DNA from: an uncultured Thermoleophilia bacterium
GTDB lineage: Bacteria; Actinomycetota; Thermoleophilia; UBA2241
NCBI GenBank assembly: GCA_963702475.1
Contig: CAVPCT010000002.1
Location: 32,001-96,000, forward strand
DNA length: 64,000 bases
Reading direction: 5' to 3'
Shown: piece by piece, positions 3,688 through 53,461 of the stretch
How the letters are laid out: each line of letters begins with the position of its first letter
How positions within the stretch are numbered: the stretch's first letter is position 1
Notes under the pieces: generated by a model
What the model was told of the DNA's origin: nothing
The model's input: the letters and a program-made list of their open reading frames with translations, nothing else
Database searches by the model: none
Position numbers and translations under genes: made by a program

Positions 3688-3997
3688 GGGACCCACTCCT
3701 TCCATGCGGTTCGCGGGGCGGCGGTCGAGGGCGAGCACCCCCCTCGACGGTGCCCGTCACCGGCATTGTATCGACACGCGCTCGCGCGTTTCCCTCGCAG
3801 CGTGTGGCGAAACGTACCGGCCGCAGGTCCCCGCTGCGCCAGAATGAAGCGGCGGCCGAGGCTGCGAGCGGGCAGGTGGAGCCGGATCACGGAGCGAAGT
3901 CGGGGCGGGGGCGCTCTGCGGGCGCGCCCCGCCCCTGGGCGGAACGCTTCTCCGGCCGGCCCCTCGCGGCCGGCCCCTCAGGGGCTTCCCGGGACGC

Positions 3998-4630
3998 TCA
4001 GACGCCGAGCAGCTCGTCGATCTTCTTGACGCCGTCGGAGGCGTCCTCGGCGTAGGCGTCGGCGCCGATCTGGTCGGCCCAGCGCTGCGTCGCGGGGGCG
4101 CCGCCGACGACGCACTTGTAGGCGAGGCCCTCCTCGCGCACGCGCTTGATGACCTTCTTCTGCTCCTCCATCGTGGTGGTGAGCAGGGCGCTCATGCCGA
4201 TCACGTTCGCGCCGACCTCGGCGGCCTTGGTGAGGAAGGCGTCGGCGGGCACGTCGCGGCCGAGGTCGTGGACCTCGTAGCCGTTGGCCTTCAGGTAGGC
4301 GATGACGATGGCCTTGCCGATGTCGTGCACGTCGCCCTGCACGGTGCCGATCACGATCACGCCCTTGGCCGCGGCGGCCTCGCCCTCGAGGGCGGCGTTG
4401 GTGACCTCGGTGGCCCCGGCCATGGCGTCGGCGCTCATCATCAGCTCGGGGAGGAAGACCTCGCCGCTCTCGAAGAGCTCGCCGACCTCCTGGATACCCT
4501 TGACGAAGCCGTTCTGCATGATGTCGGCGGGCGCGAGGCCCTGCCCGAGGGCGCGCTTCGCGACCTCCTCGGCGGCGGCGCGGTCGGCGTCGACGATGGT
4601 CTGGGCTGCTTCTTCGTAGATGGTGGCCAT
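3998..4630 (-). CDS. Methyltransferase cognate corrinoid protein (MtbC/MtmC-like)
   Basis: B12 cap domain (FLPELMMSA), GTVQGDVHDIGK (DxHxxG), SALLTTT, VGGA; ATG at 4630 with GGAG RBS. Confidence 0.92.
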   Translation of the reverse strand: MATIYEEAAQTIVDADRAAAEEVAKRALGQGLAPADIMQNGFVKGIQEVGELFESGEVFLPELMMSADAMAGATEVTNAALEGEAAAAKGVIVIGTVQGDVHDIGKAIVIAYLKANGYEVHDLGRDVPADAFLTKAAEVGANVIGMSALLTTTMEEQKKVIKRVREEGLAYKCVVGGAPATQRWADQIGADAYAEDASDGVKKIDELLGV

Positions 4631-4690
4631 GCGTGGGGCTCCTTCCTCTCTACCCGCCGGTGTCGGTTTGGCGTAGAGTCGGGTCGACGT

Positions 4691-4997: not shown

Positions 4998-5945
4998 GTG
5001 AGCACACGCTTGTTCTTCGCCACGGACGTGCACGGGTCTGAGGTCTGCTGGCGCAAGTTCATCAATTCCGGCCCGCACTATGGCGCCAACATCCTGATCC
5101 TCGGTGGCGACATGACCGGCAAGGCGGTGGTGCCGATCATCGACCAGGGGTCGGGCCGCTACTACTACCACATGCAGGACGTGCGTCACGAGTTCGAAGG
5201 GCAGGAGGCCCTGGCCAAGGAGACCCGCGCCATCCGCGACCACGGCTACTACGCGGTGACGATGACCGCCGATGAGCGCGACGAGTACACGCGCGACCAG
5301 GACAAGTTCGACGAACTGTTCCATGCGCAGATGCGCAGCACCGTGGCCGACTGGGTCGAGTGGGCCGACGCCAAGCTCGCCGGCTCGGGCCTGCAGTGCA
5401 TCGTCTGCCCCGGCAACGACGACCGCCACGACATCGACGGCATCCTCGCGCAGTCGCAGCTCATCCAGGTCGGGGAGGGCAACGTCCTCGACCTGCCCGA
5501 CGGCTATCAGCTGGCCTCGAGCGGCTGGACGAACCTCACGCCATGGGACACGCCGCGCGAGGAGGACGAGCCCGAGCTCAAGAAGCGCATCGACGCCATC
5601 GTCGCGCAGGCGACCGTGTCGCCGGACCGACTTGTCCTTGGGCTGCACTGCCCGCCCTACGACACCAACCTCGACGTCGCGCCCAAGATCGACTGGGACA
5701 CCCTGACGGTCAAGGGGCAGGACACGGCGCACGTCGGATCGAGCGCGGTCAAGGAGGTCATCAAGGAGGTCCAGCCGGTCCTGTCGCTGCATGGGCACAT
5801 CCACGAGAGCCGCGCCGCGGAGCGCATCGGCCGCACGCTGGCCATCAATCCGGGCAGCTCCTACGTTGAGGGGACGCTCTCGGGCGTCGTCGTCGAGCTC
5901 GACGGCAAGAGCAAGGTCAAGAACTACCGGCTGACCATGGGGTGA
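4998..5945 (+). CDS. Calcineurin-like metallophosphoesterase (Icc-related)
   Basis: TDVHG, GGDMTG, PGNDD, HCPP and HGHIHE motifs; GTG start after AAGGAGG. Confidence 0.88.
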   Translation: MSTRLFFATDVHGSEVCWRKFINSGPHYGANILILGGDMTGKAVVPIIDQGSGRYYYHMQDVRHEFEGQEALAKETRAIRDHGYYAVTMTADERDEYTRDQDKFDELFHAQMRSTVADWVEWADAKLAGSGLQCIVCPGNDDRHDIDGILAQSQLIQVGEGNVLDLPDGYQLASSGWTNLTPWDTPREEDEPELKKRIDAIVAQATVSPDRLVLGLHCPPYDTNLDVAPKIDWDTLTVKGQDTAHVGSSAVKEVIKEVQPVLSLHGHIHESRAAERIGRTLAINPGSSYVEGTLSGVVVELDGKSKVKNYRLTMG

Positions 5946-6019: not shown

Positions 6020-7771
6020 ATGGCAAGTTCATCAACTCCCGCGCCGGAGCAGACGCTCTTCGTACGCAAGGCGAGCGGCCTCGTCAAGGGGTGGTCTGGC
6101 GGGGACGGGTTCCGCTACTCGTTCATGTCCGTCAACCTCTTCCTGGCGATCTGGTCGTTCTCCTATGCGACGTTCATCCCGGGCGGCAGCATGTTCTGGG
6201 CGATCGTCATCGCGGCGATCTTCATCGCCCTCGAGATCCTCGTGTACGCCGGCCTGATCTCGGCCATGCCGCGCGCCGGTGGCGACTACGTGTGGCAGAC
6301 ACGTATCTTCCACAGCGCCGTCGGCTTCGTGGTCGCGGCGGTGGGCTGGTGGTTCATCCTCTGGCTCTGGACCCCCATCTACGCCGACATGGGCGTCCAG
6401 ACCACGGTGAAGCCCATCTTCCGCATCCTCGGCCTCAACGGCGCGGCGGACTGGATGACCAGCCGTACCGGCATCTTCATCAGCGCCCTGGTGGTCATCG
6501 CGATCGCCTCGACGCTCGTGGCCATCGGCATGAAGAGCTACGCCGTCTTCCAGAAGTGGGCGCTCTGGATCGGCATCGCCGGCGTCATCGTGTGCGGGAT
6601 CCTGCTGCTCGTGACCTCGGGCGACTCCTTCAAGGAGAAGTTCAACGAGGCCGCCAACAAGTACTACGGCGACGCCGGCACGCTCAATCTCCAGGCGTAC
6701 AAGACGGACGAGGCCGGCTACTTCGTCTACGAGGACATCTACGTCGTGCCCGAGGAGGGTGCGACCTATCCCGACGCGTTCACGGCGGTCGAGGAAGTCG
6801 GCAAGGGTACCGGCATGCCCACCTCGACGTTCGCCGGTGGTTTCAGCTGGGCCACCTGGACACTCATCCCGTTCATGCTGTTCTGGATCGCCTGGCCGAA
6901 CTGGGGGGCGACGCTCTACGGTGAGGTCCGAGGGGCCAAGGACTACCGCAAGAACATCTACCAGATGCTCGGCGGGCTCTTCGTGCCCACGGCCATCGTC
7001 CTCAGCTTCCTCGGGCTGATGACGTGGAAGGTAGGCTACCAGGCGTTCATGGGGATGATGGCCTCGTTCTGGTACTACGCGACGACGGGCTCGAACCTCT
7101 CGCCGCTCGGTGGCGACTACGTCTCGCCGACGGCGATGATCTCGTGGATCGTGCCCAACGCGGCCTTCCAGGTCATCCTCATCGCGGCCGTCTCGCTGCT
7201 GCTCTTCGGCTGGTTCGGCACCCTGTTCCTCTCGTCGACGCGCATGATCTTCGCCGCGGCCTTCGACCGCATCCTGCCTGAGGGGGCCGCACGGGTGACG
7301 TCGGGCGGCGTGCCGGTCGTCGCGCTGCTCCTCATGACGATCCCGTCCATCATCGTGGCAGCGCTCTATGCGTACACGCCGACCGATGCGACCACGGGCT
7401 ACACGATCGTCAAAGTGTTCACGCTGGATGCCACGTTCGGCATCATCATCATGTTCATGTTCTCGGGGCTCGCCTTCATGGTCATGAAGTGGCGAGCCAG
7501 GAGCATCTGGGACAGCTCGTCGCTGCCAAAGAGTGGTCTCGCCGGCATACCTTGGATGTCGGTGATAGCCGCCATCTACAGCGCGTTCCTGGTGTTCAAC
7601 ATCTACCTGTACGCCACAGACGCCATCTACGGAGTGAACAACCGGCAGTCCTTCATCTTCATGGGCGTCCTCTACGCGTCGGCCATCGTCATCTGGGTCG
7701 TCATGTACTTCGTCCGCAAGGGCCAGGGCATGGCGCTCGAGGCGGTCGCCAAGGAGATCCCGGTCGAGTAA
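6020..7771 (+). CDS. APC-family permease (amine/amino acid transporter)
   Basis: FVRKASGLVK N-terminus, AMPRAGGDYVW, about 12 hydrophobic segments, EIPVE C-terminus. Confidence 0.85.
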   Translation: MASSSTPAPEQTLFVRKASGLVKGWSGGDGFRYSFMSVNLFLAIWSFSYATFIPGGSMFWAIVIAAIFIALEILVYAGLISAMPRAGGDYVWQTRIFHSAVGFVVAAVGWWFILWLWTPIYADMGVQTTVKPIFRILGLNGAADWMTSRTGIFISALVVIAIASTLVAIGMKSYAVFQKWALWIGIAGVIVCGILLLVTSGDSFKEKFNEAANKYYGDAGTLNLQAYKTDEAGYFVYEDIYVVPEEGATYPDAFTAVEEVGKGTGMPTSTFAGGFSWATWTLIPFMLFWIAWPNWGATLYGEVRGAKDYRKNIYQMLGGLFVPTAIVLSFLGLMTWKVGYQAFMGMMASFWYYATTGSNLSPLGGDYVSPTAMISWIVPNAAFQVILIAAVSLLLFGWFGTLFLSSTRMIFAAAFDRILPEGAARVTSGGVPVVALLLMTIPSIIVAALYAYTPTDATTGYTIVKVFTLDATFGIIIMFMFSGLAFMVMKWRARSIWDSSSLPKSGLAGIPWMSVIAAIYSAFLVFNIYLYATDAIYGVNNRQSFIFMGVLYASAIVIWVVMYFVRKGQGMALEAVAKEIPVE

Positions 7772-7976
7772 GCCGCGAAGCGGCGAAGCCACTGAGCGAC
7801 TGTGGGCTGAAACTCGAACGACGCAGACGAAGACGCAGGCGCGGGCGGCGGCCCGGTGATCCTTCCGGGCCGCCGCCGTCCCTGACGGGGAGGCGCCCAC
7901 AAGCGGGCGTTCCCCGGAGGGTCCCCACGCCGGGGGCGCCGGGCGTGAAACGACGGCAGAGGGAGGCCGTACCTTA

Positions 7977-9377
7977 ATGAAGGTCCTCACCAGAATGGGC
8001 GACAGCTCCAACGTCGAGCTGACGATGGACGAGCTTCGCCAGGAGTTCATCGCCGGCTCCGAGCTCGCCGCCACGAAGGCCAAGATCCCGGCGCTCACCG
8101 AGAACGAGATCGACTTCCTGGTCGACATGTTCGCGGCGCCGACGCGTATCTGGGGCGTGCAGCGCGGCCACGAGGTCGTCATGACCAAGGATGGCTGCGT
8201 CAACGCCCTCAACTCCTCGCGCATGTCGAGCGGCGTCACCGCGCCGGTCAACCGCGAGGTGGGCGTGCGCCTCTTCGAGTCGATGCTCGGCTTCGACTCC
8301 ATGGAGGTGGCGCACAACGACTACTCCGTGAAGCCGCAGCGCTTCCTCAAGGCGCTGGAGCAGCTCCACATGGAGATCCTCCAGGAAGTCACCATCTTCC
8401 CGCTGTTCTACGGCTTCATGCCCAACCTGGGCCTGTACTACCGGCCCGACGGCTCGTTCGAGAACCCGTCGGACCTCATGCCGATCGGCAAGATCCCGGA
8501 GGCGCGCCGCACGCAGGAAGAAGCGCTCGAGAAGTGCATGGAAGACTGCATCGAGATGAGCGACTGCATGCTCGAGATGGGCGCCGACGGCATCGACTAC
8601 GACACCACCGCGTCCACCGGTGACGCCGAGTTCCTGGCCGTGCTCAAGACCACCGAGCACGTGGCCGGCGAGACGGGCCTCCCCGTCGAGGTCGGCATGT
8701 CGGCCGAGATGGTGCTGGGCTTCCACGGCCAGCTCGAGTACAACGGCAAGCGCCTCGCCGGCATGTGGCCGCACCAGCAGCTGCAGGTGTGCGAAGAGGC
8801 CGGCGTGGCGATCTTCGGCCCGGTCTGCAACACCAACACCAAGAAGACCGTGCCGTGGAACCTGGGTCGCGCCCTCACCTTCGTCAAGGCGTGCACCGAC
8901 ATCGCCAAGATCCCGGTGCACCCCAACGTGGGCATGGGCGTGGGCGGCGTGCCGATGTTCGAGACCCCGGCCGTGGACGTCGTGACGCGCTGCAGCGCGG
9001 CCATGATCGAGATCGGGCACGCCGACGGGTTGTAGGTCGGTACGGGTGACCCGGCCGGCATGCACATGGCGCATCTGCTGGCCTCGTCGATGGGCGGTAT
9101 CCGCGCAGCCGGAGATCTGGTTGCCCGCATGCAGCTCCAGAAGATGAGGATCGACGACGCCAAGAAGTACGTGGCCGACAAGCTCCACGTGACGCCGCTC
9201 GACCTGTCCGATCCCACCGTCATGCGAGCTCTCAGGGAAGAGCTCGACATCGGTGTGGTCACGGGCGTCCCCGGCATCGCCAAGGGCATGGCCGCCAAGT
9301 GCCGTATCGCCGAGTTGCTCGACATCAAGATCAACTCGGTGGAGCAGTTCAAGAAGAAGACCGGTCTGCACCTCTGA
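7977..9377 (+). CDS. mtbB: Dimethylamine:corrinoid methyltransferase, 466 aa, with in-frame amber codon 353 (TAG at 9033-9035) predicted as pyrrolysine
   Basis: Track ORFs 7977-9035 and 9060-9377 are in the same frame. Read-through gives ...[40 protein letters not shown]...LREELDIG...AKGMAAK...LLDIKINS, matching remembered Methanosarcina MtbB (GVDGI-O-IGVGDP...AAGDLVARM). Confidence 0.92.
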
Positions 9378-9437: not shown

Positions 9438-9474
9438 AACGGGCCCCGGTCGCCTACGGCGACCGGGGCCCGTT
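9438..9474. terminator. Hairpin (17-bp stem) between convergent mtbB and kinase genes
   Basis: AACGGGCCCCGGTCGCC-TAC-GGCGACCGGGGCCCGTT. Confidence 0.65.
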
Positions 9475-9513: not shown

Positions 9514-10452
9514 TCAGACGGCCCTGAGCCACTCCTCGTAGTCCGGATGGGCGGCGTTGCGCTCCATGCGGTGGATGCGGTCCATGCCGTACTGGAAGAA
9601 GTCGAAGTCGAGCTTGCTGAGCGTGGCCTGGATCATCGCCCAGATGCTCCACCACAGGTCGGCGACCAGCTTGTGCAGCATCATGCGCGCGTAACGGTGC
9701 TCGTCCCAGCCGCCGCAGTACTGCTCGAGGACGGCCTTCTCTTCGGCCTCGGTGAGCGGCGTCTCCACGCAGAAGTCACCGAGGTCGAAGTACGGGTCGG
9801 TCATGCCGCCGTACTCCCAGTCGATGACCCACATCTTGCCATCGAGGGCGAGGATGAAGTTCTCGCTGAGCAGGTCGTTGTGGCAGGCGGTGAAGGCCGG
9901 CGCGTCACGCTTCATGGCCTCCTCGATGCGCGCGCCCTGTTCCAGCATCCAGTCGGTCTCCGCAGGGCGCGGCGCGCTCACGTCCTCGGCCATGCGCAGG
10001 TACTCGCGGATCATGTCGAACACGCGGATCTCGTTGGTGAAGACGGCCCTGTCGTGGTAGGTGCGCATGGCCGCGACGATCTTCTGGAGACGGTCGGCGT
10101 GTCCGGCGATGGATTCCGGGTGCATGGTCTCGCCCTCGATGAAGGGCACCACGGTGCAGTCGCCGGGCTGGAGGACGTGCAGGAGCGGCGGCGTGACGCC
10201 GGCCGCCGCCGCGGCGCGGTGGTTGCTGAGCTCGCGCGCGCGGTCGATGAACGTGTCGGTGCCCTCGCCGGGGATGCGCACGACGTACTTGCCGGCGCCG
10301 GGCGTTCCCGGCTCGCCGAGTACCGTGACCACGTAGTTGCGGTTGGTGATGCCGCCGCCGAGCTCCTGGCAGAGGACGTCCTTGTCCTGCCACTCCTCGA
10401 TGCGGGCGATGACCTCCTCGACGCTGATGGGCGCGCTGGCGGAGTCTGTCAT
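9514..10452 (-). CDS. Choline/ethanolamine kinase-like phosphotransferase (APH family)
   Basis: LGGGITNRNY, VVRIPGEGT..IDR, CHNDLLSENF, IDWEYGGM.DPYFDLG motifs. Confidence 0.88.
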   Translation of the reverse strand: MTDSASAPISVEEVIARIEEWQDKDVLCQELGGGITNRNYVVTVLGEPGTPGAGKYVVRIPGEGTDTFIDRARELSNHRAAAAAGVTPPLLHVLQPGDCTVVPFIEGETMHPESIAGHADRLQKIVAAMRTYHDRAVFTNEIRVFDMIREYLRMAEDVSAPRPAETDWMLEQGARIEEAMKRDAPAFTACHNDLLSENFILALDGKMWVIDWEYGGMTDPYFDLGDFCVETPLTEAEEKAVLEQYCGGWDEHRYARMMLHKLVADLWWSIWAMIQATLSKLDFDFFQYGMDRIHRMERNAAHPDYEEWLRAV

Positions 10453-10558: not shown

Positions 10559-11941
10559 TCAGAGGGCCGGGACCTCGAGGCCCATCTTGGCGAGGTCGGC
10601 GCGCACGTCCTCCATCGCCTTCTGGTACTCGCTGTTCACGATCGCTTTGGTCTTCGCGTCGTAGACCTCCTGGAAGGTCATGCCCTTGTCCGGGTCCTTC
10701 AGCTTGTCCCCGAACAGCGGGAAGAGCTTCTGGGCGATGGGCTCGGCCTCGGCGCGCGTGAGCTTGGCGGCCGCGAGGCCCATCTCGGCGTGGAACTTGT
10801 GGTCGTCCGGCACCAGGGAGTCGGTCTGGACGGCCATGGCCGGGTGGCCGGAGAACACGTTGCCGCCTGAGGTGACGATGGCGAGCAGGTAACAGGCCAT
10901 CTCGTAGTGGTACTGCTTGGTGCCCGAGCCGCCGCCCAGGTACGGCAGGTTGACCATGGGGTAGCCCATGTTGCGGCCGATTGCGGCGTTGCTCATGGCG
11001 ATGGCCCAGATGAGCGGCTTGGTGGACGAGAGGTGCAGCTTGCTGTGCAGCGGCGCGTTGTAGTGGTAGGTGCCGCGGAAGACCAGGTTGCCCATGATCA
11101 TGTAGGCGGTGGCGGTGACGGCCACGCCCTCCGCGCCGCCGGCGTAGCCGCCGAAGAGCGGGGTGGAGGTGGAGCCGATATTGGCGCTGATGCTGTTGTA
11201 GAAGGCGACCTTCTGCAGAGCCTCGTAGCCCACCACCATCTCGCTGAGGAAGTCGATGAGGAAGCCGTCGCTCGGCCGCAGGCCGAACTCAGGGTAGGTG
11301 GCGGCGAACATGCTGGCCGGCTGGGAGGCCGCGGAGATGCCGTTGATGATCGGCAGGCCGGCGCGACCGGAGCGACGGATGCCCTCACGCGCGAGGCGCA
11401 CGGTCTTGCAGGCCGCGAGGATCTCCTGCGGCGAGCGCACGCGCGCGTCCTTGCCGCGCAGGTGCAGGATCGACGGCACGGACACCGAGTCGACGATGGA
11501 GAAGGACGCCATCTTCTCGACGGTGTCCATGTACACCTGCTCGTCGCTGGTGTAGATGCCGCCGCCCACGTGCACCCACGGGCGGTCGTCGGTCGTGTCG
11601 GGCCTGCGCCCGTACATGGTCTTGCGCTCGCGCCCCTCGCCGAAGGTCGCGCCCCTGGGGGCCTGCGAGCAGGCCAGCAGGATCTCTTCCGTGGTGAACT
11701 GCATCACGCGGTTGGTCTCAGGGCAGTAGGCGCCGGCCTCTGCGATGAGGTCCACGGCGGCCTCGAACACGTGGTCGGTGAGGGCGTCGTCGGTGTTGAT
11801 GATGGTCTGTTTGTCCCATTTCACGCCGTGCCGCGCGATGACCTCGCTCAGCTTGGGCACGTAGCGCTTCATGTAGTAGTCCATCTCGGACGTGAGCGGA
11901 CCGGTCTCCGCGCGGTCGAACACCTCGATAAGGTCGATCAT
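10559..11941 (-). CDS. Monomethylamine methyltransferase (MtmB)-family protein lacking pyrrolysine
   Basis: DRAETGP, YCPETNRV.QFTTEEI, SPQEILA, PLFGGYAGG.EG and G.TFQEVYD match MtmB. The Pyl site region (GRPGMGV-O-GP) reads GRAGLPIING and the ORF is uninterrupted (460 aa). Confidence 0.85.
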   Translation of the reverse strand: MIDLIEVFDRAETGPLTSEMDYYMKRYVPKLSEVIARHGVKWDKQTIINTDDALTDHVFEAAVDLIAEAGAYCPETNRVMQFTTEEILLACSQAPRGATFGEGRERKTMYGRRPDTTDDRPWVHVGGGIYTSDEQVYMDTVEKMASFSIVDSVSVPSILHLRGKDARVRSPQEILAACKTVRLAREGIRRSGRAGLPIINGISAASQPASMFAATYPEFGLRPSDGFLIDFLSEMVVGYEALQKVAFYNSISANIGSTSTPLFGGYAGGAEGVAVTATAYMIMGNLVFRGTYHYNAPLHSKLHLSSTKPLIWAIAMSNAAIGRNMGYPMVNLPYLGGGSGTKQYHYEMACYLLAIVTSGGNVFSGHPAMAVQTDSLVPDDHKFHAEMGLAAAKLTRAEAEPIAQKLFPLFGDKLKDPDKGMTFQEVYDAKTKAIVNSEYQKAMEDVRADLAKMGLEVPAL

Positions 11942-11990: not shown

Positions 11991-12638
11991 TCACACGAGC
12001 TCGCCGGCGATGCGCACGGCGTCGTAGGCGTTGGCCGCCCAGCCGTCGGCGCCGATGCTGTCGGCCCACTCCTGGGTGGTGGCGCCGCCACCGACCATGA
12101 CCTTGAACTTGTCGCGCGTACCCTGGTCCTTGAGGGCGTCGATCACGTCGCGCTGGCCGATGAGTGTGGTGGTGAGGAGCGCCGACATGGCGATGACGTC
12201 CGCGTGCACCTCGTTGGCCTTGTCGACGAACTTGAACAGGTCGACGTCGATGCCCAGGTCGTGCACCTCGTACCCCGAGGTCTCGAAGAGCAGCTTGAGG
12301 ATGTTCTTGCCGATGGAGTGCAGGTCGCCCTTGACGGTGCCCATCACGACGGTGCCCTTCTTGGGGCCCGCGCCGCCGGCCTCCTTGATGAGCGGCTCGA
12401 GCACGCCCATGGCCGCCTGGAAGGCGAGGGCCGCCTGCATGAGCTCGGGCAGGAAGATGTCCTCACACTCGAACTGCTCGCCGATGACGTTGAGGCCCGG
12501 CAGCAGGCCCTTGTCGATGACTTCCTGGGCGCTCATGCCATCGGCGAGGGCCTTGTCCACGGCGGCCAGGACGGCTTCTTCGTCCTGGTCGATGATCGCC
12601 TGCTTGAGCTGGTCGTACATGGCCTCGTTTCCCATCAC
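11991..12638 (-). CDS. Methyltransferase cognate corrinoid protein (second copy)
   Basis: IFLPELM, GTVKGDLHSIGK, SALLTTT, VMVGG; the start may be the ATG at 12635 or 12620. Confidence 0.92.
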   Translation of the reverse strand: MMGNEAMYDQLKQAIIDQDEEAVLAAVDKALADGMSAQEVIDKGLLPGLNVIGEQFECEDIFLPELMQAALAFQAAMGVLEPLIKEAGGAGPKKGTVVMGTVKGDLHSIGKNILKLLFETSGYEVHDLGIDVDLFKFVDKANEVHADVIAMSALLTTTLIGQRDVIDALKDQGTRDKFKVMVGGGATTQEWADSIGADGWAANAYDAVRIAGELV

Positions 12639-12666: not shown

Positions 12667-14109
12667 TCAGTCTTCGTTCCAGACGGCGTCGCCGGCCACG
12701 ATGCCGGGGAACTCCGCGCGGATGCGGGCGTCCAGGTCCTCGTCCCACGCGGACTGGTTGGGCTGCGTGAGGATGCCTCGGGCCACTGCGCGCGCCTTGC
12801 TCTGGGCGTCCGGCCTGCCGGCCCCCTCCCACTGGGCGCGCATGTCGCGGTTCGCCACCTTGGGGAAGAGGGCCGTCGTCTTCATGAGCGACTTCGTGTG
12901 GCGGCTCTTCATGTAGTCGCCACCGGGGCCGACGTCGGCGATGACGTCGAGCGCCAGGTTCTCCTCGCTGTACTCCAGCCCGCGCACGACGCGTTTGTTC
13001 ATCTGCGCGATCTCGTCGTCCACCACGGCCTTGCCGAAGTCGAACGCCATGAGCGAGCTGAACAGGCCGCCCATGTTGAGCAGGGTCGCGCCGGCGAGCA
13101 CCGAGGCAAGGGTGTTCATGCCGGTCTCGTAGCCCGACTGCGCGTCGTTGCTGTGGGCGTTGGTCAGGCCGATATAGCCGCCGGTGGGGACGTTGTAGAA
13201 GCGCCCGAGCTGGGCCTGGGCCATGAAGAGCATGCCGGTCTCGATGGCGCCGGGCGCGTAGGCGCCGGTGCGCATGTCGGCCACTGTGGGCAGGCTCGCG
13301 TAGATGAGCGGCGTGCCCTCCCTGACCATCTGCTGGAACACTGAGATCGCGAGGAACTCCGCGTTGCCGACGACCAGTGTGCCCATGAGCGTCATGGGTG
13401 AGGTGAGGCCGGCGTTGGGGACCACCGTGGTGTACACGGGCAGGCCCTCGCCGGTGAGGTACATCACCGCTTCGGTCGAGTCGACGTCCATGGTGAGCGG
13501 GCTGACCATGGGGCAGTAGTGGTGGTTGATGATCGGCCGCTCGTAGTAGGCCTCCTTGCCGCCGGCGATGAGCTCGCCCAGCGTGAGCACCATGTGGAGG
13601 TCGTCCATGTTGGGCGTGTTGCTGCGCACGGGCTTGAGGCAGTTCTTCAGCGCCGGGTAGAAGCGGCTGAGGCTGAACTGGCCGGGAGGCGCGTCGTCGG
13701 CGAGCGTGGAGATGGAGAAGATGTCGAAGCCCTTGAGCTCGTTGATGAGGTGGGCGATGTTGGCGATGTCGGTGGAGGTGGCGCGGCGCTCGACGCCGGT
13801 GACCGGGTCGACGACGTTGGGCGCCGAGCTGCCGGTGACGACCACGGGGCCACCGTCCGGGATGGTGCGGTCGAACTGTGGGTCGCGCCCGCGGAACGTG
13901 AAGCGCGGCGGGCACAGGCGCATGTAGCGGTCGACCACCTCGGGCGGGAAGGTGACGATGCCCTCGTCCGAGACGGCGCAGCCGTGCGTCTTGAAGACCT
14001 CGCGGGCCTTGGGGTGATGCGCGAGGATACCCACGTTCTCGAGCACCCAGAGGGACGCCTCGTGGACGCGCGCCACCTGCTCTGCGCTGAGCAACTCTGC
14101 GTACTTCAT
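12667..14109 (-). CDS. Trimethylamine methyltransferase (MttB) superfamily protein, non-pyrrolysine (MtgB-like)
   Basis: SPLT, SPMTLMGTLV..NAEFLA, DMRTGA..PGAIE, DAQSGYE, LALDVI..VGPGG. Leu occupies the Pyl-equivalent position (GYIG-L-TNA). Confidence 0.9.
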   Translation of the reverse strand: MKYAELLSAEQVARVHEASLWVLENVGILAHHPKAREVFKTHGCAVSDEGIVTFPPEVVDRYMRLCPPRFTFRGRDPQFDRTIPDGGPVVVTGSSAPNVVDPVTGVERRATSTDIANIAHLINELKGFDIFSISTLADDAPPGQFSLSRFYPALKNCLKPVRSNTPNMDDLHMVLTLGELIAGGKEAYYERPIINHHYCPMVSPLTMDVDSTEAVMYLTGEGLPVYTTVVPNAGLTSPMTLMGTLVVGNAEFLAISVFQQMVREGTPLIYASLPTVADMRTGAYAPGAIETGMLFMAQAQLGRFYNVPTGGYIGLTNAHSNDAQSGYETGMNTLASVLAGATLLNMGGLFSSLMAFDFGKAVVDDEIAQMNKRVVRGLEYSEENLALDVIADVGPGGDYMKSRHTKSLMKTTALFPKVANRDMRAQWEGAGRPDAQSKARAVARGILTQPNQSAWDEDLDARIRAEFPGIVAGDAVWNED

Positions 14110-18361: not shown

Positions 18362-18721
18362 GGGGGCGAACAGGTCTCGACATGGGCTGTACCGCGGTGG
18401 GAGCAGCAGGCCGAGGTCCGGTGGCCTCGTTAAACTGCCGGAACAACACACTTGCCGAGGATAACTCCTTCGCACTCGCTGCCTAATTAATTAGGCAGCG
18501 CATCGCACCCGGCTCGCCCGTGGCCGGGACTCGCGGTGTCATCTAACGGGCTGGGGTGCGGTCGCTCTGCTCCGTGCGAGCGCATCCGAGACTGATCGGG
18601 GCTGGCGAGCGGAACCTGTGCCGCTGCGGGGTCCGTAAGCGAGACAAATGCGACGGCTAAGCCTGTAGAGACTCCGCCGAGGCGTCCGTGGACGCGGGTT
18701 CGATTCCCGCCGCCTCCACCA
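18362..18721 (+). ncRNA. ssrA: tmRNA; tag peptide (A)AEDNSFALAA* at 18454-18486
   Basis: 5' GGGGGCG pairs with 3' CGCCTCC-A-CCA (G3:U), T-arm GGGTTCGATTCCC, tag ORF ending in ALAA-TAA. Confidence 0.97.
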
Positions 18722-43797: not shown

Positions 43798-44379
43798 TCA
43801 CGGCCCGAGCGTGGCGTACAGCTCGTCGGCGAAGGGCAGCAGAAGCTCGGTCTCGGGGTGCCTGAGCTGCCGGGGGTCGGCAGCCTCCCAGCGGCCGAGC
43901 CGCACGCGGTCCAGCGCGTCCGCGTCCTTGAGGAGCCACAGGATGCGCAGGGCCCGGCAGGGATCCTGGGGGACGCCGGCATCCCGACCGTCCGACCGCC
44001 GCGCGGACCACTCGTCGAGCTCGCTCACCGCCGTCCGGTCCGGTCGCGAGTGGTACGTCACGGCGAACAGCACGAGGCAGGACTCGCTCCGCGTGAGGCC
44101 GGCGACGAGGCCCAGCCGTCGCGCCCGGGACGCGCTCGCGGCCCCGTGCCGCGGATCCTCGCCGTCGTGCCGCCGGCCGATATCGTGCAGCAGGGCGGCG
44201 CGCAGCACGAGGCGCGTGTCGTCCTCACCCCACCCAAGGAGCGCCGTGAGGCGCTGGGCGTAGATGTGCACACGCTGCGCGTGGCGCACGCCGTGCAGGC
44301 GCGAGTCGTGCCGGAACCACTGGGACGGCACCTGCGGGGCGCGGGCGAGCCAGGCGGCGACCTCGCCGGCCTCGGTCAC
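43798..44379 (-). CDS. HD-domain phosphohydrolase
   Basis: HGVRHAQRV, ALLHDIGR, HG, KDADALDRVR; translationally coupled to the upstream XRE gene. Confidence 0.85.
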   Translation of the reverse strand: MTEAGEVAAWLARAPQVPSQWFRHDSRLHGVRHAQRVHIYAQRLTALLGWGEDDTRLVLRAALLHDIGRRHDGEDPRHGAASASRARRLGLVAGLTRSESCLVLFAVTYHSRPDRTAVSELDEWSARRSDGRDAGVPQDPCRALRILWLLKDADALDRVRLGRWEAADPRQLRHPETELLLPFADELYATLGP

Positions 44380-46100
44380 GCGAGTCCCAGGGCGTCGAGC
44401 TGCTCCGCCAGCGCGCCGGGTCGCAGGTGGAGCATGGCGGCAGCGTCCTCGAGGCTGAGCCGGCCGTCGCGGAGCGCGGCGAGCGCCCGGGCGCGCATGC
44501 ACGCCGGCACGCGCAGCACCGCCGGCGGGCCGAACTCGCCCACGGGCAGGACCTCGGCCGGCGTGAGGTGCGCCAGCGTGTCCTTGGGCCCGCCCAGGAA
44601 CGCCTGCCGCGGGAGGAGCTCCCACTCCTGGTGCTTCATCTGCGAGCGCAGCGCGGTGAACTGCTTGACGTGGAGGCGGCCCGCCGCGCGGGAGCGGAAG
44701 AGGGCTGCCCAAGCGCTGATGCCGAACGCATTGGCGAGCTCGAGGAGCGTGTCGAGGCCCGGGTTGCGGGGCAGGTCCTGGCGGCGGCCGTACCAGCGGT
44801 CGACGGCGCGCACCGGGGCGAGGAACTCCTCGGCGAAGTCGTTGGCGGCGGCCTCACGAGGATTGGCGCGGCTCCAGCCGATGCTCTCGTCAACCACGTC
44901 GCCGTGACCCAGCACGAGGTGGGCGAACGCGTGCACCAGGGCGAAGCGCTGCAAGACCACGGGGCGCCCGGCGTTGACGAACACGAAGGGCACCCCGTCC
45001 TCCACCACGGTGGCGGCGACGGGGTGCGGGTCGCTCTCGATGCCGATGCGTGCGGCGAGCTCCGGCTCGGGACCGCTCACGCGGGCGACGACCACCTGGA
45101 CGCCGAGGCCGTCCTCGACGAGCGGGACGAGGTCCGGCACCGGGCCGTCGTCAGGCTCCACGTGGAGCTCGCCGCGCCAGAACCGGGCGACGCGGTCGTA
45201 GAGCACGTCGCCCGCCCCCGGCGGCGGGATCACCGGCTGCCATGGCCGCGCCGCGAACGCCGGCTTGCCCTCGGCGGTCTGCCCCGTGCTCCACGGGAGG
45301 TCCGGCCCGGTCTGCTCCGTCAGCTCCCGCAGGACGAACCAGTCGCGCACGACGCCGGCGACGGCCGCCGCCCAGTCCTCGCCGGCGGTGCGCGCGGAGG
45401 CGCCGGCGGGGAGCGCGGCCTGCGCGGCCTGGAGGGCCTCGGCGCGAAGGGCTTCGGCGGGGAGGGCGCCGGCGAGTACGTCGGGCCCGGGGGGCTCGGG
45501 TCCGGGCGAGGCGGCCGGCGGCAGGGGCGCAGACGTGCGTGACATCGGCAGCACGCCCGGCGCCGCCGCGGCGGCGACCGGCGCCTCGCCGGCCGCCAGA
45601 GGTGGTGCGCCGCCGACGCTCCCGGCCCCGACGAAGCCGTCCACGTCCGGGTGTTCGAAGGCGCGGTCCGGGTGCAGCGCCCGGAACGCGAGAGGGCGCT
45701 CCCCGGGCGCGCGCCGCGCGCCGCCGGACTCCCCGCGAGGGGCCGCCCGGTGTCTCGCCCGTTCGATGGCGGTGAGCAGCTCGTGCTCGCCCGAGGCCGG
45801 CCTCGTCGCCCGGGCGGCGCTCGATCGCCGCACCTCGGCGTAGTCCGGCCGGCCCCACGCCCGTCCGGTGCCGGTCGCCTGTCCGCTGCCGCTCCCGAGC
45901 AGTGCGTCGGCGCTCACGTGGAACAGGTCGGCGAAGCGCTGCAGCTCGGCGGCCGAGACGCGCCGCCGTCCGGCCTCGACGCGGCTGACGGCGGATTGAT
46001 CCAGACCCACCGCTCCGGCGAGCTCGCGCTGGCTCCAGCCGCGCTGCGCGCGCAGGCGCGCTATCCGCGTCCCGACGTCTTCTTGATGCTCTGCGCGCAT
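44376..46100 (-). CDS. XRE-HTH regulator fused to an ImmA/IrrE-like domain with degenerate HExxH (HAFAH)
   Basis: N-terminal SQRELA..VGLDQSAVSRVEAG; C-terminal RFALVHAFAH...EAAANDFAEEFLAP. Confidence 0.8.
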   Translation of the reverse strand: MRAEHQEDVGTRIARLRAQRGWSQRELAGAVGLDQSAVSRVEAGRRRVSAAELQRFADLFHVSADALLGSGSGQATGTGRAWGRPDYAEVRRSSAARATRPASGEHELLTAIERARHRAAPRGESGGARRAPGERPLAFRALHPDRAFEHPDVDGFVGAGSVGGAPPLAAGEAPVAAAAAPGVLPMSRTSAPLPPAASPGPEPPGPDVLAGALPAEALRAEALQAAQAALPAGASARTAGEDWAAAVAGVVRDWFVLRELTEQTGPDLPWSTGQTAEGKPAFAARPWQPVIPPPGAGDVLYDRVARFWRGELHVEPDDGPVPDLVPLVEDGLGVQVVVARVSGPEPELAARIGIESDPHPVAATVVEDGVPFVFVNAGRPVVLQRFALVHAFAHLVLGHGDVVDESIGWSRANPREAAANDFAEEFLAPVRAVDRWYGRRQDLPRNPGLDTLLELANAFGISAWAALFRSRAAGRLHVKQFTALRSQMKHQEWELLPRQAFLGGPKDTLAHLTPAEVLPVGEFGPPAVLRVPACMRARALAALRDGRLSLEDAAAMLHLRPGALAEQLDALGLA

Positions 46101-46187
46101 CGTTTCCGTCCCCTTGTGTCGCTACATTGAGTCTAGCAGGTCGTTCTCCGCACCGATCAGGTTCCCTCCCGACTGGGAGGACCGCTC

Positions 46188-46254
46188 TTGCAATAGATGT
46201 TAGTATCACATATACTCCGGGAATAGTGAAGACGTATCGATGCTCAATAGTCAT
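46188..46254 (+). promoter_or_regulatory. Near-consensus sigma70 promoter TTGCAA-N17-TATACT with two ATG-N9-CAT boxes (candidate XRE operators)
   Basis: -35 at 46188-46193 and -10 at 46211-46216; boxes at 46197-46211 and 46240-46254; AT-rich patch. Confidence 0.6.
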
Positions 46255-46339
46255 GAACTGCTGGCCCCAGCCTCGGATGGGAGGAGCCGCTCGCCGGCCG
46301 GACCGGGCCGACGAGCGGCGTTATGGAGAGGAGACACCC

Positions 46340-47380
46340 ATGGCCGATACGCACGACGCCTTCGCGGCCGACACTCTGACGCGCACGCTGTGTCTGGGCG
46401 AGCGCCTGACGCACGGGCCGCTGGCCGTGTTCCCGTTGTTCACCGACCGGGACGCGCCCCAGGCCCCGCGCCCGCACTTCGTCACACTCCGGCAGGCGCT
46501 GAACGAGGGTCTGGTCACCGTGACCGAAGTGAGCGAGAGCGGGTCGGTCCCCGACTTGCGTCTCGTCAACAACGGCGACCGTCGCGTGCTCGTGCTCGAC
46601 GGCGAGGAGCTGCGCGGCGCGAAGCAGAACCGCGTGCTCAACACCAGCATCCTGGTGTGCGGGCACAGCACCCTGGTGGTGCCGGTCAGCTGCACCGAGG
46701 CCGGCCGCTGGTCCTACGCTTCGCGCGAGTTCGCCGAAAGTGAGATCGTCGCCGAGCGGCAGGTCAGGCGAGCCATGCGCGAGACCACGCACGCCGCGCT
46801 GGCCGCCGGCGCAGGCCACCGCACCGACCAGGGGCGCGTGTGGCGCGAGGTCGACGCCGTGCACGCCAGGCAGCAGACGCGCTCGGCCACGCACGCGATG
46901 CGCGACTCGTACGAGCTCAAGAAGCGTGACCTCGACGAGGTCGTCGCCGCGTTCCCTCTGAGCGACCACCAGAAGGGCGTGCTCGTCCTGCACGGCGGGC
47001 GCGTCGTCGGCCTGGACTACGTGTCGCGCTCGCGGCAGTACGCGGACCTGCACGACAAGCTGCTGCGCAGCTACGCCTTCGAGGCGCTCGTGCGAAACGG
47101 GGAGCCGGGCGATCGCGTTGTCGCCGAGGCGTTCCTCGGTCGCATCGCCGGGCTCGGCGGCCGGCGCTTCAAGAGCCCGGGGCTCGGCTGGGACGTGCGC
47201 TTCCAGGGCGCCGGCGTGCTGGGCTCGGCCCTCGTGTACCGCGGCAGTGCCGTGCACGCCGCCTTCTTCGACGTGGGCGACGTCGACGGCGCCGGCGAGC
47301 CCGGCGCCGAGCGGCCGCGGCAGCCCGAGTGGCGCATCGCCGACGCCCGCGAGCGCGCCCGGCGGCGGACGGCCGGGTGA
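46340..47380 (+). CDS. ARPP-1 / DUF6569 family protein
   Basis: VTEVSESGSVP.L..N...VL.LDGEEL.GAKQNR.LN....VPVSC.EAGRW...DQG.VW pattern, recognised from memory. Confidence 0.75.
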   Translation: MADTHDAFAADTLTRTLCLGERLTHGPLAVFPLFTDRDAPQAPRPHFVTLRQALNEGLVTVTEVSESGSVPDLRLVNNGDRRVLVLDGEELRGAKQNRVLNTSILVCGHSTLVVPVSCTEAGRWSYASREFAESEIVAERQVRRAMRETTHAALAAGAGHRTDQGRVWREVDAVHARQQTRSATHAMRDSYELKKRDLDEVVAAFPLSDHQKGVLVLHGGRVVGLDYVSRSRQYADLHDKLLRSYAFEALVRNGEPGDRVVAEAFLGRIAGLGGRRFKSPGLGWDVRFQGAGVLGSALVYRGSAVHAAFFDVGDVDGAGEPGAERPRQPEWRIADARERARRRTAG

Positions 47381-47413
47381 GAGCCGCCGCCGGCACCACC
47401 GAAAGGAGTCACC

Positions 47414-48359
47414 ATGCAAGATGAGACGCGCCAAAGGTCGTACCGGGCCGCGGCCGCCATCACGCGGGAGAAGCTCCGGCGCGACGCGCCGGAGAGGGCC
47501 CGCGCCCTCGACCAGGTCGAGGACAGCGACATCGTGGTGGTGGGCGGCATCTACGATCACGTCGAGTCCGTGCTCCAGGCGCTCGACGTGCCCCACTCGC
47601 TGGTCGCGCCGGAGCAGGTCGACCATCTCACGCTGCGCCCCGAGCAGCTGCTCATCGTCAACTGCCCGGGCAACGTCTCGCCGGCCGCGCTGCGCAGGAT
47701 CCGTGCGTTCGTCGAGGCCGGTGGCAGCCTGTTCACCACCGACTGGGCGCTCAAGCACGTCATCGAGCCGGCCTTCCCTGGTGTGCTGGCATTCGAGAAG
47801 GCGCCCACGCGCGACGACGTGGTGCGCATCGAGGTCCGCGACCCGGACAGCATCTACCTGCAGGGCGTGCTGGACGGCCAGGACGACCCGCAGTGGTGGC
47901 TGGAGGGGTCCTCGTACCCCATCACCGATCCTGGACGAGGAGCGCGTGCGAGTGCTCATCACGAGCCGCGAGCTGGGGGAGAAGTACGGTGAGACGCCGG
48001 TGGCGGTGTGGTTCCGCTGGGGCGAGGGCGACGTGTTCCACATGATCAGCCACTACTACCTGCAACGCACCGAGCTGCGCACTGCGCGGCACCGAGGCGC
48101 CGCCGCCGGCTACTTCGCCGAGCAGGCGGTGACCATGTCGCCGGCCATGGTGCGTGAGTTCGGCGACCTCAGTCTCGCCGACGTGGAATCGGCCAAGCCC
48201 TCGGCGGCGTTCATGGCGAACGTCATCATCGAGAAGAAGCGGGCCGCCGAGCGGCGCGAGGAGGCCGCGCCAGGCAGCGGCGCCGCTCGCGACGCTTCCG
48301 CGTCGGACGGCGGGCCGCCGGTCGCCCCTCCGCCTGACGCTCCGAAGGATCCGGAGTGA
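47414..48359 (+). pseudogene. Hypothetical protein (class I glutamine-amidotransferase-like fold suspected) with a one-base insertion near 47926
   Basis: G.YDHVE.VL, VNCPG, FV..GG.LFTTDWAL, WWLEGSSYPI; continues as ILDEERVRVLI...HMISHYYLQ in the shifted frame. Confidence 0.6.
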
Positions 48360-50795: not shown

Positions 50796-51179
50796 TCAGC
50801 CGGGCCGGACGATGCCGCGGCGCTCGTAGGCCGCCGCGGCCTCGCGGACGAGCACTGCGCACAGGGGCGCGGCCGCGGCGTCCAGACGGGTGGCGAGCGC
50901 CTCCAGCTCTGGCCCAGTCGAGCGGCCGGGCCGGAGCGTCTCGTAGATGGCGAGCACGTCGTCGTCCGGAAGAGCGGTGAGTTCGGCGGCGCGCCGCAGG
51001 TTCTCGCCGAGCTGCGGGTTGCCGTGCTCCTCGGCGACGGCGGCCTGGCGGCGCAGCGTGTCGGGGTGGACGCGCAGGTCAGCTGGGGAGAGGTCGCCGC
51101 GAACGGCGGCCTCCAGCGTGAGCTCCTCGAGCGGCCGGCCGCTCAGGGCGCGGCAGACGAAGCCGTCCGCGCCGGTCAT
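50796..51179 (-). CDS. pduE: B12-dependent diol/glycerol dehydratase small subunit
   Basis: ELTLEA...G.LS..DLR.HP.TL..QA.VA, NL.RAAELT.LPD..VL.IYE.LRP.RST. Confidence 0.88.
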   Translation of the reverse strand: MTGADGFVCRALSGRPLEELTLEAAVRGDLSPADLRVHPDTLRRQAAVAEEHGNPQLGENLRRAAELTALPDDDVLAIYETLRPGRSTGPELEALATRLDAAAAPLCAVLVREAAAAYERRGIVRPG

Positions 51180-53461
51180 CGCCGGACCTCCAGGTCGACG
51201 GGCGGCGCGCCCGGCACTGCCTCGCCGCGCTCGATGGCCACGAGCGCGACGACCTCGGCGTGGAAGCGCGCCTCGATGGCCCAGTCGGTGTACGGGTTGC
51301 GCACCGGCGCCGGCCGCTCGCCTTTGGCGTAGCCCGCCGCGTTCGCGCCGAGCTCCCGGTACATCTCGAGCGTCAGGAGCGGCGCGATGGAGAGCAGCTC
51401 GAGGCAGGCGAGCGGTGCCAGCCCGCGCTGGTGGATGAGCGCCGTGCCCTTGGCCTGCAGTCCGACGGCGACGCCGGAGCCGGCCAGCTCAGCCGCGGTG
51501 AGGCCGATCACCCCGAGGTCAACTGTTGACTGCACGCGCACGATGCGCGCGCGGCAGCCCTCGGCCTCGATGCCGGCGACGACCGCGTCGAGCGCGTCGC
51601 CGGCCGGCAGGCCGGCCATCGTGAACCAGAGCTTGGTCGCGAAAGCCGGCGAGACCCCGACGCAGACCTCGAGCGCGTCGGCGCCGGCCTCGGCCGGGCC
51701 GCGCTCGACGAGGCGAAAGGACGCGGCCTCCGGCGTCGCACGGCCGGCCGCGTGCCGCGCCAGCAGGTCGTCCCGCGAGCGCTCCTGGCGGATCGCGGCG
51801 ATCTCGCGGCGCCTCGCGGCCGAGACTTCGTAGCCGGTTCCCGGCCCCTGGTAGTCGTTCGGATCGGTCACCTTCGACAGCACGTTCAGGTGCTCGTCGA
51901 AGATCGCCGCCGTCTGCAGATAGTCGCCCGCGACCCGGGCGCGTCCCAGGGCGAACACGCGCCCGGCCTCCTCTTCGAAGCCCGTCGCCCACAGCGCGCG
52001 CACCACGTCCAGGACGCCGGTCTGCTTCGCAAGGATCGCGTCCGCGGCGTGCAACACCGCCTGCGGGTCCGGAGGCGTGACGTCTTTGGAGCCCTCGGCG
52101 TTGACGACCTCTACGACGTGCTCCTCGGTGAAGCCGGGGGCCGGGCCGTCGTCCACCAGCCCCAACTCGCGGTACACGGCGAGGCACGCCCGCGCCGCGC
52201 GCTCGCGCACCTCCCGCACGCGCACCTCCGTGACCGGGCGCAGGGCGCCGTCCGTGTCCCAGTCGCGCTGCAGCACGAGATAGTCGTCCAGGTCCTCCGC
52301 GTTGAAGTTACTGGGCCCGAACATGTTGTCGTAGCGCGGTATCGAGCCGAAGCCGCTGAACAGGAAGTCCGAGCCGGCCAGGAACAGGGGGACGGTATGC
52401 GCGGTACGGCGCATGTCCGACTCGCTCACGAGGGCGTCGTTGCCCGAGCACGACTCGAGGTCGCGGAGCATGACGAGGAGGTTCTCGGCGAGCAGTTCGC
52501 GCATGCCGCCGGGGACGGCGCCGACGACGCTGGCGGCGTCGATGCCGCCGTTCTGCACGCCCTGGGCGCCCATGGCGCGGGCCAGGGCGACGCAGCGGGA
52601 TTCGAGCGAGAACATGGAGCGGCCCTCGGCGGCGCCCATGAGCGCCTCCGCGCCGCCGCCGCTGGTGACTCGCATCTTGAGGCCGCGCGAGGCGTAGGCG
52701 GAGCAGAGGAAGGCCTTGGACCAGGGCGTGTCGTCGCCGTCGAGGAAGACCTTTTCCGTGCCGTAGAGGCTGACCGTCTCGGCGTAGGTGGTGAGGCCAC
52801 GGAGGCCGAGGTCGAGTTCGAGGGCCTCCTCGACCGAGCACTGCGTGATGGCGCCGGCGGAGCCGACCTGCGAGCCGATGAGCACGGCGAGCGCGTTGGA
52901 CGGGGCGTCGGCGTTGACCGGCACCGTGGTCTCGACCTCGCGGAAGCCGTAGGCGACCGCGGTGGCCGCGTCGGCGGCGAGCAGCAGCGGGTCGTCGAGC
53001 CGGTTGGTGACGTGCGCCTGGTTGCTGGGCGTGCGGCGTACGCGCATCTTCGCGACGGCGATCTGGAGTTCGACCGGGCGCAGCAGGGCGACGACGCGGG
53101 CGAGCTTCTCCGGCGTCGCCCCGGCGGCGAGGCGCACGACCTCCGTGCGCGGCACGTTGGGGTCGACGATGAGGCGGGCGAACGCGACGTCGTCGAGGGC
53201 GTTCGCCTCGGCGGCGACGGCGACGTCGATGCCGCGCGCGGCGATGAAGGCGTCGATGAGGTCGAAGTCCGGGGCCGGCGTGCCGTCGAGTTCGAGGACA
53301 GCTCCGCACTCGTCGTCAACCAGGATGCCGGGCTCGGGATCGTTCGCGGAGGCGAACGCGACGAGCCCGGCCTCGTGGTCCTCCGCCGCGAAGCCGTCCA
53401 GATTGACCGGCCGACCGTCGAGTGCCGCGAAGCGGCCGAGGCGCTGTCTCTGCTCGTGCAC
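51176..53461 (-). CDS. pduC: B12-dependent diol dehydratase homolog, large and medium subunits fused (761 aa)
   Basis: RPVN.DGF, RRTPSNQAHVTN, YAETVS.YGTE, DGDDTPWSK, YDNMF. The C-terminal ~190 aa match the medium subunit (GIEAEG, SGVAVGLQAKGT.LIH, LEL...PL). Confidence 0.88.
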   Translation of the reverse strand: MHEQRQRLGRFAALDGRPVNLDGFAAEDHEAGLVAFASANDPEPGILVDDECGAVLELDGTPAPDFDLIDAFIAARGIDVAVAAEANALDDVAFARLIVDPNVPRTEVVRLAAGATPEKLARVVALLRPVELQIAVAKMRVRRTPSNQAHVTNRLDDPLLLAADAATAVAYGFREVETTVPVNADAPSNALAVLIGSQVGSAGAITQCSVEEALELDLGLRGLTTYAETVSLYGTEKVFLDGDDTPWSKAFLCSAYASRGLKMRVTSGGGAEALMGAAEGRSMFSLESRCVALARAMGAQGVQNGGIDAASVVGAVPGGMRELLAENLLVMLRDLESCSGNDALVSESDMRRTAHTVPLFLAGSDFLFSGFGSIPRYDNMFGPSNFNAEDLDDYLVLQRDWDTDGALRPVTEVRVREVRERAARACLAVYRELGLVDDGPAPGFTEEHVVEVVNAEGSKDVTPPDPQAVLHAADAILAKQTGVLDVVRALWATGFEEEAGRVFALGRARVAGDYLQTAAIFDEHLNVLSKVTDPNDYQGPGTGYEVSAARRREIAAIRQERSRDDLLARHAAGRATPEAASFRLVERGPAEAGADALEVCVGVSPAFATKLWFTMAGLPAGDALDAVVAGIEAEGCRARIVRVQSTVDLGVIGLTAAELAGSGVAVGLQAKGTALIHQRGLAPLACLELLSIAPLLTLEMYRELGANAAGYAKGERPAPVRNPYTDWAIEARFHAEVVALVAIERGEAVPGAPPVDLEVRR

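Follow-up and report, generated by a model that had tools for sequence, protein, structure and literature searches.

The window analysed here, 64,000 nt of DNA from an uncultured Thermoleophilia bacterium, contains a gene for dimethylamine:corrinoid methyltransferase (mtbB) with a single in-frame TAG, and it raises the question of how this TAG would be read as pyrrolysine (Pyl) in a cell that also uses UAG as a stop. According to PMC12626013 (2025), no targeted mechanism by which Pyl UAGs are distinguished from terminating ones is known in any Pyl organism. Rare synonymous choices are conspicuous in this lineage, which has 70% GC and dozens of Pyl genes. We describe the gene, the decoding machinery of its genome and the mRNA context of the TAG in turn. 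Coordinates are collected in Table 1.

Table 1. Features of the mtbB locus and of the pyl genes; positions are those of the window unless contig C3 is named, and fractions give presence among full-flank orthologous loci
Feature	Position	Strand	Basis or remark
Second corrinoid protein	3998..4630	-	over TIGR02370 cut-off
Metallophosphoesterase-like gene	5010..5945 (start approximate)	+	32/37 loci
Amino-acid/amine permease	6020..7771	+	32/37 loci
mtbB, dimethylamine:corrinoid methyltransferase	7977..9377	+	466 aa via read-through
GGG TTG, rare Leu codon (UUR)	9027..9032	+	P site when UAG decoded
In-frame TAG, codon 353, Pyl position	9033..9035	+	translation, orthologue alignment
Lowered third-position GC, ~40 codons after TAG	9036..9155	+	overlaps PYLIS_2 match
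8-bp hairpin, AGAU tetraloop (loop 9113-9116)	9105..9124	+	synonymous covarying pairs
Choline/ethanolamine kinase-like gene, convergent with mtbB	9514..10452	-	29/37 loci
MtmB-family protein without TAG, Ile at Pyl column	10559..11941	-	21/37 loci
Corrinoid protein, candidate MtbC partner	11991..12638	-	20/37 loci
Non-Pyl MttB-family methyltransferase, Leu at Pyl column	12667..14109	-	
tRNA-Pyl(CUA), pylT	C3:641046-641118		cloverleaf with 5-nt D loop
PylB, PylC, PylD, PylSn	beside pylT on C3		over curated cut-offs
PylSc	C3:657647-658372		over curated cut-off

The mtbB frame continues through the TAG

Translation of mtbB gives 352 aa, the TAG (ADGL*VGTGDP, the asterisk marking the TAG), 113 aa and a terminal TGA, and a GGAGG lies upstream of the ATG, at 7962-7966. 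The sequence-only reading had joined the two open reading frames across this TAG into one 466-aa MtbB, and profile searches bore this out: the read-through product spanned positions 5-463 of PF09505 (612.8 bits), so that the similarity does extend past the TAG, and it scored 503.8 under TIGR02368, against a cut-off of 369.1 that the 352-aa truncation, at 343.6, fell short of. A scan of species genomes with mtbB returned 62 related loci, of which 58 showed 82-92% identity and were titled Thermoleophilia, Actinomycetes or Actinomycetota, in agreement with the actinobacterial lineage that had been proposed, while the remaining four were from Bacillota (46-48% identity). After seven partial or frameshifted loci were left out, the window and the other 55 loci formed a set of 56 full-length genes; TAG occupied the Pyl column in 56/56 and occurred nowhere else in any of them. 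Median pairwise dN/dS against 51 close orthologues, obtained by simple pairwise counting, was 0.17 downstream of the TAG and 0.25 upstream, so the suggested comparison of the downstream segment revealed purifying selection. Since the TAG is present in all 56 orthologues and the frame beyond it is constrained, the TAG is neither chance nor error. Three RNA-library contigs of relatives, which are contigs and not reads of the source, span the TAG, and none of the 40 differences listed, with 167 more beyond that listing, lies at 9033-9035. A sequence search of the PDB found no solved structure for MtbB, and a search of a viral collection gave no match.

Pyl machinery and its distribution

The source genome (4.3 Mb in 9 contigs, 70% GC, 93.8% complete, 6.5% contamination) was searched for pyl genes, as had been advised, and pylT, pylSn, pylSc and pylBCD were all found, on a contig other than that of the window. 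They are arranged as pylBCD-pylT, with pylSn ~1 kb on and pylSc ~15 kb away on the opposite strand; the tRNA-Pyl was not called by Rfam at the gathering score. This complement supports the predicted decoding of UAG as Pyl in the source organism. The accompanying surprise at the lineage, in which a Pyl-MtbB was held to be unusual, was overstated: Pyl mtbB and mttB in Actinobacteriota are already known in print, since Actinobacteriota MAGs are reported to express both (PMC10805028) and PylRS is listed for two Actinobacteria (PMC11764691), and Pyl-MtbB occurred in 21/401 genomes of a Bacillota draw.

Amber methyltransferase sites in the source genome numbered 26 (10 mtbB, 15 mttB and 1 mtmB), of which five lie in gene pieces that are incomplete or carry frameshifts, and four MtmB and many MttB matches were TAG-free. 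The ten mtbB are divergent from one another and may not all act on the same substrate. Acetyl-CoA synthase and corrinoid activators (RACo matches) are encoded as well, which would fit methylotrophic acetogenesis. The MttB-family matches, 75 in all, lie mostly on contig C4 and are mostly TAG-free, an extreme methyltransferase expansion. The TAG-free MtmB-family genes are at C5:571067, C4:65316 and C9:248475, the window copy being the fourth; this is the common form in the order, where TAG was present in 12 of the 113 MtmB matches listed.

Among genomes of the order, pylSc was present in 82/89 and in 11/11 genera; in the phylum it was rare (2/401 genomes). MtbB was found in 35/36 same-genus relatives vs 1/24 from other families, and two small relatives, each 98% complete, had neither pylSc nor mtbB. 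The order-wide extent of the trait was not found in our literature search, and the supplements of the papers may hold it. The sole other pylSc match among the 401 phylum genomes belongs to a host of a different family of the class, with 63% GC, in which a compact pylSc-pylBCD cluster lies with two mtbB, mttB and mtmB (locus L064, G044:C12:36000-56000). Methylamine use is predicted for this entire order of actinobacteria from sediments and wetlands, with genes that standard callers split.

Other genes of the window

Two corrinoid-protein genes, at 3998-4630 and 11991-12638, are candidate partners for MtbB. The first is duplicated: window positions 3970-4644 match C3:643637-644311 with 99.85% identity over 675 nt, and the C3 copy stands beside pylSn. 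At 10559-11941, the TAG-free mtmB is ~90% conserved next to mtbB. In many orthologous loci (L014, L016, L022, L024 and others), the stop of the upstream permease is a TAG that immediately precedes the mtbB start codon in the same frame, so that read-through would fuse permease and MtbB. Between the convergent mtbB and kinase genes, a perfect 15-bp inverted repeat (9440-9472) is probably a terminator.

Farther along the window, a single 761-aa frame encodes both the large and the medium subunit of a B12-dependent dehydratase (51176-53461, minus strand), and an AEP-TOTE primase fused to a helicase domain (55191-57245, minus strand) adjoins a PD-(D/E)XK nuclease gene (57336-57986, plus strand), a pair that is a possible conflict system. 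The stretch 44376-48359 holds an HTH plus IrrE-like peptidase gene, an HD-domain gene, an ARPP-1 gene and two unannotated ORFs, and a tmRNA with the tag AEDNSFALAA lies at 18362-18721 (plus strand).

UAG remains a stop codon

In the source genome, TAG terminated 510 of 3704 genes called (13.8%), as counted with a crude gene caller of our own. UAG is thus ambiguous in this organism, being both a Pyl codon and an ordinary stop, and full reassignment, as in the archaeal all-Pyl code, does not describe a genome in which TAG is not rare as a stop. Both EF-Tu (C5:758912-760120) and pylD (L001:9191-9997, directly before pylT) end in TAG, where read-through could be regulatory or costly.

Further recoding was sought with a self-homology screen, in which peptides across 781 TAG, 3519 TGA and 187 TAA junctions were compared with the genome's own proteins. 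Apart from mttB sites and pairs of in-frame neighbours, it returned just three isolated cases, with no conserved Pyl case outside the methyltransferases; the screen is insensitive, having missed mtbB because mtbB has no TAG-free paralogues. The isolated in-frame TAGs (C5:891682, C3:326262 and C9:221698) face a sense codon in their paralogues, the one at C5:891682 belonging to a 99% repeat with a sense codon, and are probably nonsense changes or errors. Selenocysteine in place of Pyl was considered and rejected, as the TGAs in two MttB matches and one MtbB match are at match ends or frame-shifted. A TAG in pylSc of genome G472 proved to be the terminal stop of that gene rather than a Pyl codon, and no enrichment of tandem stops after TAG was found.

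A rare leucine codon precedes the TAG

Leu precedes TAG at 17 of the 26 Pyl sites of the source genome and is encoded by TTG in 16 of these 17, although TTG makes up 2.7% of Leu codons genome-wide and 3.0% of those after Gly; before other, non-Pyl TAG ends, 0/30 Leu codons were TTG. Across all loci, the Leu before a Pyl TAG in high-GC genes (GC3 >0.85) was TTG or TTA in 161/163, against a gene-body share of 2.3% in the same genes, and TAG-free paralogues had TTG or TTA at the equivalent Leu in 1/21. The held-out Bacillota behaved alike, with TTG/TTA in 29/29 mtbB, where 10.3 would be expected from each gene's usage, and in 12/12 distinct mtmB. The rule is specific to Leu: other residues stood at 29/50 mttB sites, and many mttB have Ala, Thr or Gly before TAG and so no UNN codon. 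In a literature search made mostly without subscription papers, we found neither a paper on such a preceding-codon rule nor support for the idea that the P-site tRNA underlies it.

A hairpin common to three families

MtmB, MtbB and MttB are not known to share sequence homology. Consensus folds of the paralogue groups contained one recurring hairpin, whose AG(A/G)N loop begins 78 nt after the TAG in mtbB, 72 nt in mttB and 114 nt in mtmB, and the first A of the loop fell on a third codon position in all three. The window's own hairpin, with its loop 78 nt from the TAG, had a stability z of -2.2 vs shuffles. With family-specific loop anchors that were picked after the data had been seen, the loop A was supplied by GGA in 198/198 anchored mtbB sites (of 199), by GCA in 48/50 mttB (one of the two misses being mis-anchored by a codon) and by CTA, ATA, GTA or GCA in 13/14 mtmB; GGA before Asp elsewhere in those mtbB genes was used in 13/336. 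TAG-free paralogues had the A in 2/72 anchored mttB (of 90) and 0/32 anchored mtmB (of 55). In the Bacillota sets, which alone were held out, the loop was present in 27/30 mtbB and, as AGGU, in 8/12 mtmB. Among 38 distinct mttB, seven were without the loop A, five of them from one Bacillota group. All such counts overstate independence because the sequences are related.

Within the source genome, a stable AGRN hairpin lay 60-125 nt downstream of 20/25 Pyl sites vs 15/423 other TAG ends, one of the 15 being itself a Pyl mttB copy; control values were 17 of the first 600 TGA ends, 5/100 TAA ends and 21/600 random coding windows. The other five Pyl sites fold weakly in the 28-nt window, where mtmB scores 0.02. 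Orthologues of the neighbouring permease, kinase, metallophosphoesterase and corrinoid genes had no conserved AGRN hairpin (best 6/29), and the pyl genes had two, at the background rate. Averaged over Pyl genes, third-position GC in the ~40 codons after the TAG was 0.79-0.87 vs ~0.95 upstream. One consensus fold placed the UAG inside a hairpin; that hairpin was rejected, since it showed no covariation and the window sequence folds otherwise.

In a FastTree tree of 125 rows, two TAG-free groups, one of them on a long branch, sat within the Pyl-MttB clade, and both were without the loop. These MttBs (C4:42524-43951, C4:59946-61394 and L184-L186), with Leu or Pro at the Pyl column, are recent Pyl losses and should be useful for asking what Pyl does.

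Covariation supports the mtbB hairpin

Two pairs of the mtbB stem join synonymous positions, and by corrected mutual information they took the top two ranks both among 4,656 and among 13,041 column pairs. They were paired in 99% and 91% of sequences and switched among all four Watson-Crick types, with at least 16 and at least 25 switches, respectively, on a tree of the upstream protein; comparisons of independent pairs went in the predicted direction in 6/6 and about 7/10, none going the opposite way. In 141 mtbB (the window and 140 drawn from 174 distinct), 95.6% of pairs were kept vs 87.4% after shuffling, with 79 double-sided changes vs 17. The held-out Bacillota mtbB retained the two pairs in 30/30 and 28/30, and Bacillota mtmB had one synonymous pair that was C-G in five and U-A in three. 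An invariant G-U pair points to a hairpin that would act as sense-strand RNA.

Covariation was weak in mttB (90.8% paired and four double changes, slid controls being alike), and 13 mtmB shared a long stem with no double change. A conserved coding-sequence hairpin downstream of the recoded codon is thus backed by covariation strongly in mtbB and weakly in mttB. AGR-loop hairpins can also be kept by protein conservation alone when the AG lies inside a GAG codon; such hairpins were conserved without Pyl in 16/21 non-Pyl mtmB and in 39/54 at mtbB codon 345.

Interpretation

We lean towards the view that mtbB is a working Pyl-dependent dimethylamine methyltransferase of an anaerobic Thermoleophilia bacterium, with a two-part mRNA context that biases decoding of its UAG. 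A working enzyme is supported by the purifying selection on the frame, the full Pyl machinery, the corrinoid partners, the activators and acetyl-CoA synthase; by established MtbB chemistry, its Pyl would bind dimethylamine, and the methyl group would pass to the corrinoid protein and on to the Wood-Ljungdahl pathway. Since ordinary genes here still terminate at UAG, Pyl-tRNA would have to compete with RF1. P-site tRNAs affect RF1, and as the first part of the context, the tRNA of the UUR Leu codon before the UAG would most likely disfavour termination. As the second part, the AG(A/G)N hairpin, 72-114 nt off and outside the ribosome, would most likely bind a protein and so increase the amount of full-length product; candidate binders are SelB and PylSn, the latter a free tRNA-binding subunit. 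The context would act as an enhancer and not as a requirement. The mtbB hairpin and the UUR codon are almost certainly under selection, and their link to UAG decoding or its consequences is quite probable; that they enhance read-through directly is modestly favoured. That bacteria with an ambiguous UAG use a real two-part Pyl insertion signal, in which each of mtmB, mtbB and mttB acquired its hairpin independently and a protein (PylSn, SelB or another) recognises it and directs Pyl-tRNA to these codons, is a serious possibility that we hold only tentatively. Bacteria may, then, mark which UAG stops are to be read through.

Other explanations account for part of these observations. The hairpin could conceivably protect or pace the transcript while the ribosome waits at the UAG, as an RNA-polymerase pause or against Rho or nucleases; its position beyond the ribosome footprint at varying distances, the fall in third-position GC after the TAG, the pausing of ribosomes at Methanosarcina Pyl UAGs reported in PMC13663744 and a probable Rho (motif match only) are all compatible with such a role. 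For protection, however, a stem would suffice, yet the AG(R)N loop is kept via rare codons in three families, and the UUR codon is left unexplained, so that we consider this unlikely. It is decidedly unlikely that the hairpin is the site of an RNA-binding regulator of a methylamine regulon, unrelated to the UAG, and was lost from non-Pyl paralogues on a change of substrate. That loss fits either reading, and the same loop on different stems is what a protein site might look like, but the hairpin lies just downstream of the UAG in all three families and is not conserved in orthologues of the neighbouring genes.

The literature, as represented by the passages drawn on from PMC12626013, PMC13663744 and PMC8211752, would favour plain amber suppression, in which case the codon patterns would merely follow from conservation of the protein, from common descent or from gene conversion. 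Hairpins driven by the protein sequence do exist, and the paralogues are related. The signals are nevertheless at synonymous positions and hold from GC3 0.19 to 0.97, and the pairs, which switch among all four Watson-Crick types, recur on independent branches; judged by this covariation, plain suppression appears largely refuted for mtbB and is improbable overall. Least probable by far is that the gene is a pseudogene, that the TAG is a sequencing error or that TAG has been wholly reassigned to Pyl. The assembly, with its frameshifted paralogues and its contamination of 6.5%, might suggest an artefact, but the 56/56 conservation of the TAG and the downstream dN/dS of 0.17 argue against one, as do the 13.8% share of TAG among stops and the absence, by self-homology, of conserved read-through outside the methyltransferases against reassignment.

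If the mRNA context outlined above does raise read-through, no Pyl signal in bacteria would have been supported before it; Pyl genes could then be recognised from sequence, and amber suppression would gain a design rule. The open question of UAG choice becomes testable with a few small synonymous mutations.

Comparison with known systems

The gene resembles Methanosarcina MtbB1-3 (PF09505, TIGR02368) in its full-length match, its single TAG at the conserved site and its nearby corrinoid genes; it differs in its actinobacterial host with 26 amber sites, in pyl genes that lie on another contig and in window neighbours that are non-Pyl MtmB and MttB paralogues. With the bacterial split PylSn+PylSc system of the Desulfitobacterium type it shares pylB, pylC, pylD, pylT, pylSn and pylSc, whereas the order pylBCD-pylT, pylSn and then, ~15 kb off on the other strand, pylSc sets it apart, as does its being an order-wide trait.

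Like the SECIS element read by SelB in bacteria, the Pyl hairpin is an in-frame hairpin downstream of a recoded stop. A candidate SECIS in the source genome has an AGUU loop that starts 17 nt after its UGA; the Pyl loops start 72-114 nt away, at 72, 78 or 114 nt rather than at a fixed short distance, and their third base is a purine. SECIS is essential, whereas the Pyl hairpin has exceptions. A search of the source genome for a dedicated elongation factor or for a further protein with a SelB wing found neither beyond its one EF-Tu and one SelB, and SelB was present in 44/50 and 5/5 genomes. Apparent Pyl-positive genomes without SelB were set aside, G462 having selA and a SelB wing, and three others without selA being 86-93% complete.

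The closest relatives of the context are the PYLIS models. In the passages drawn on, PMC2933860 describes the archaeal mtmB PYLIS as not essential, possibly enhancing and of limited covariance, with nothing similar in mtbB; PMC3639795 found a common structure neither among mttB nor across the families; PMC8211752 and PMC13663744 describe no element as required for Pyl insertion; and PMC8318568 leaves PYLIS unmentioned. A loop common to Pyl families was likewise described in no paper that our search, mostly without subscription papers, returned. Rfam PYLIS_2 (RF02509, mtbB) matches 9033-9132 with 63.7 bits, and its second hairpin, with the same aGAc loop, already draws the mtbB hairpin while leaving unpaired a position that covaries in the present mtbB set. 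PYLIS_3 (RF02510, mttB) draws no hairpin at the AGGN site, and PYLIS_1 (RF01982, mtmB), a 100-nt model, ends before the mtmB hairpin. All of these 100-nt models start at the UAG and so omit the preceding codon. This comparison suggests that the mRNA context is a new turn on the long-doubted PYLIS idea, in which the loop common to the families and the UUR rule would be new.
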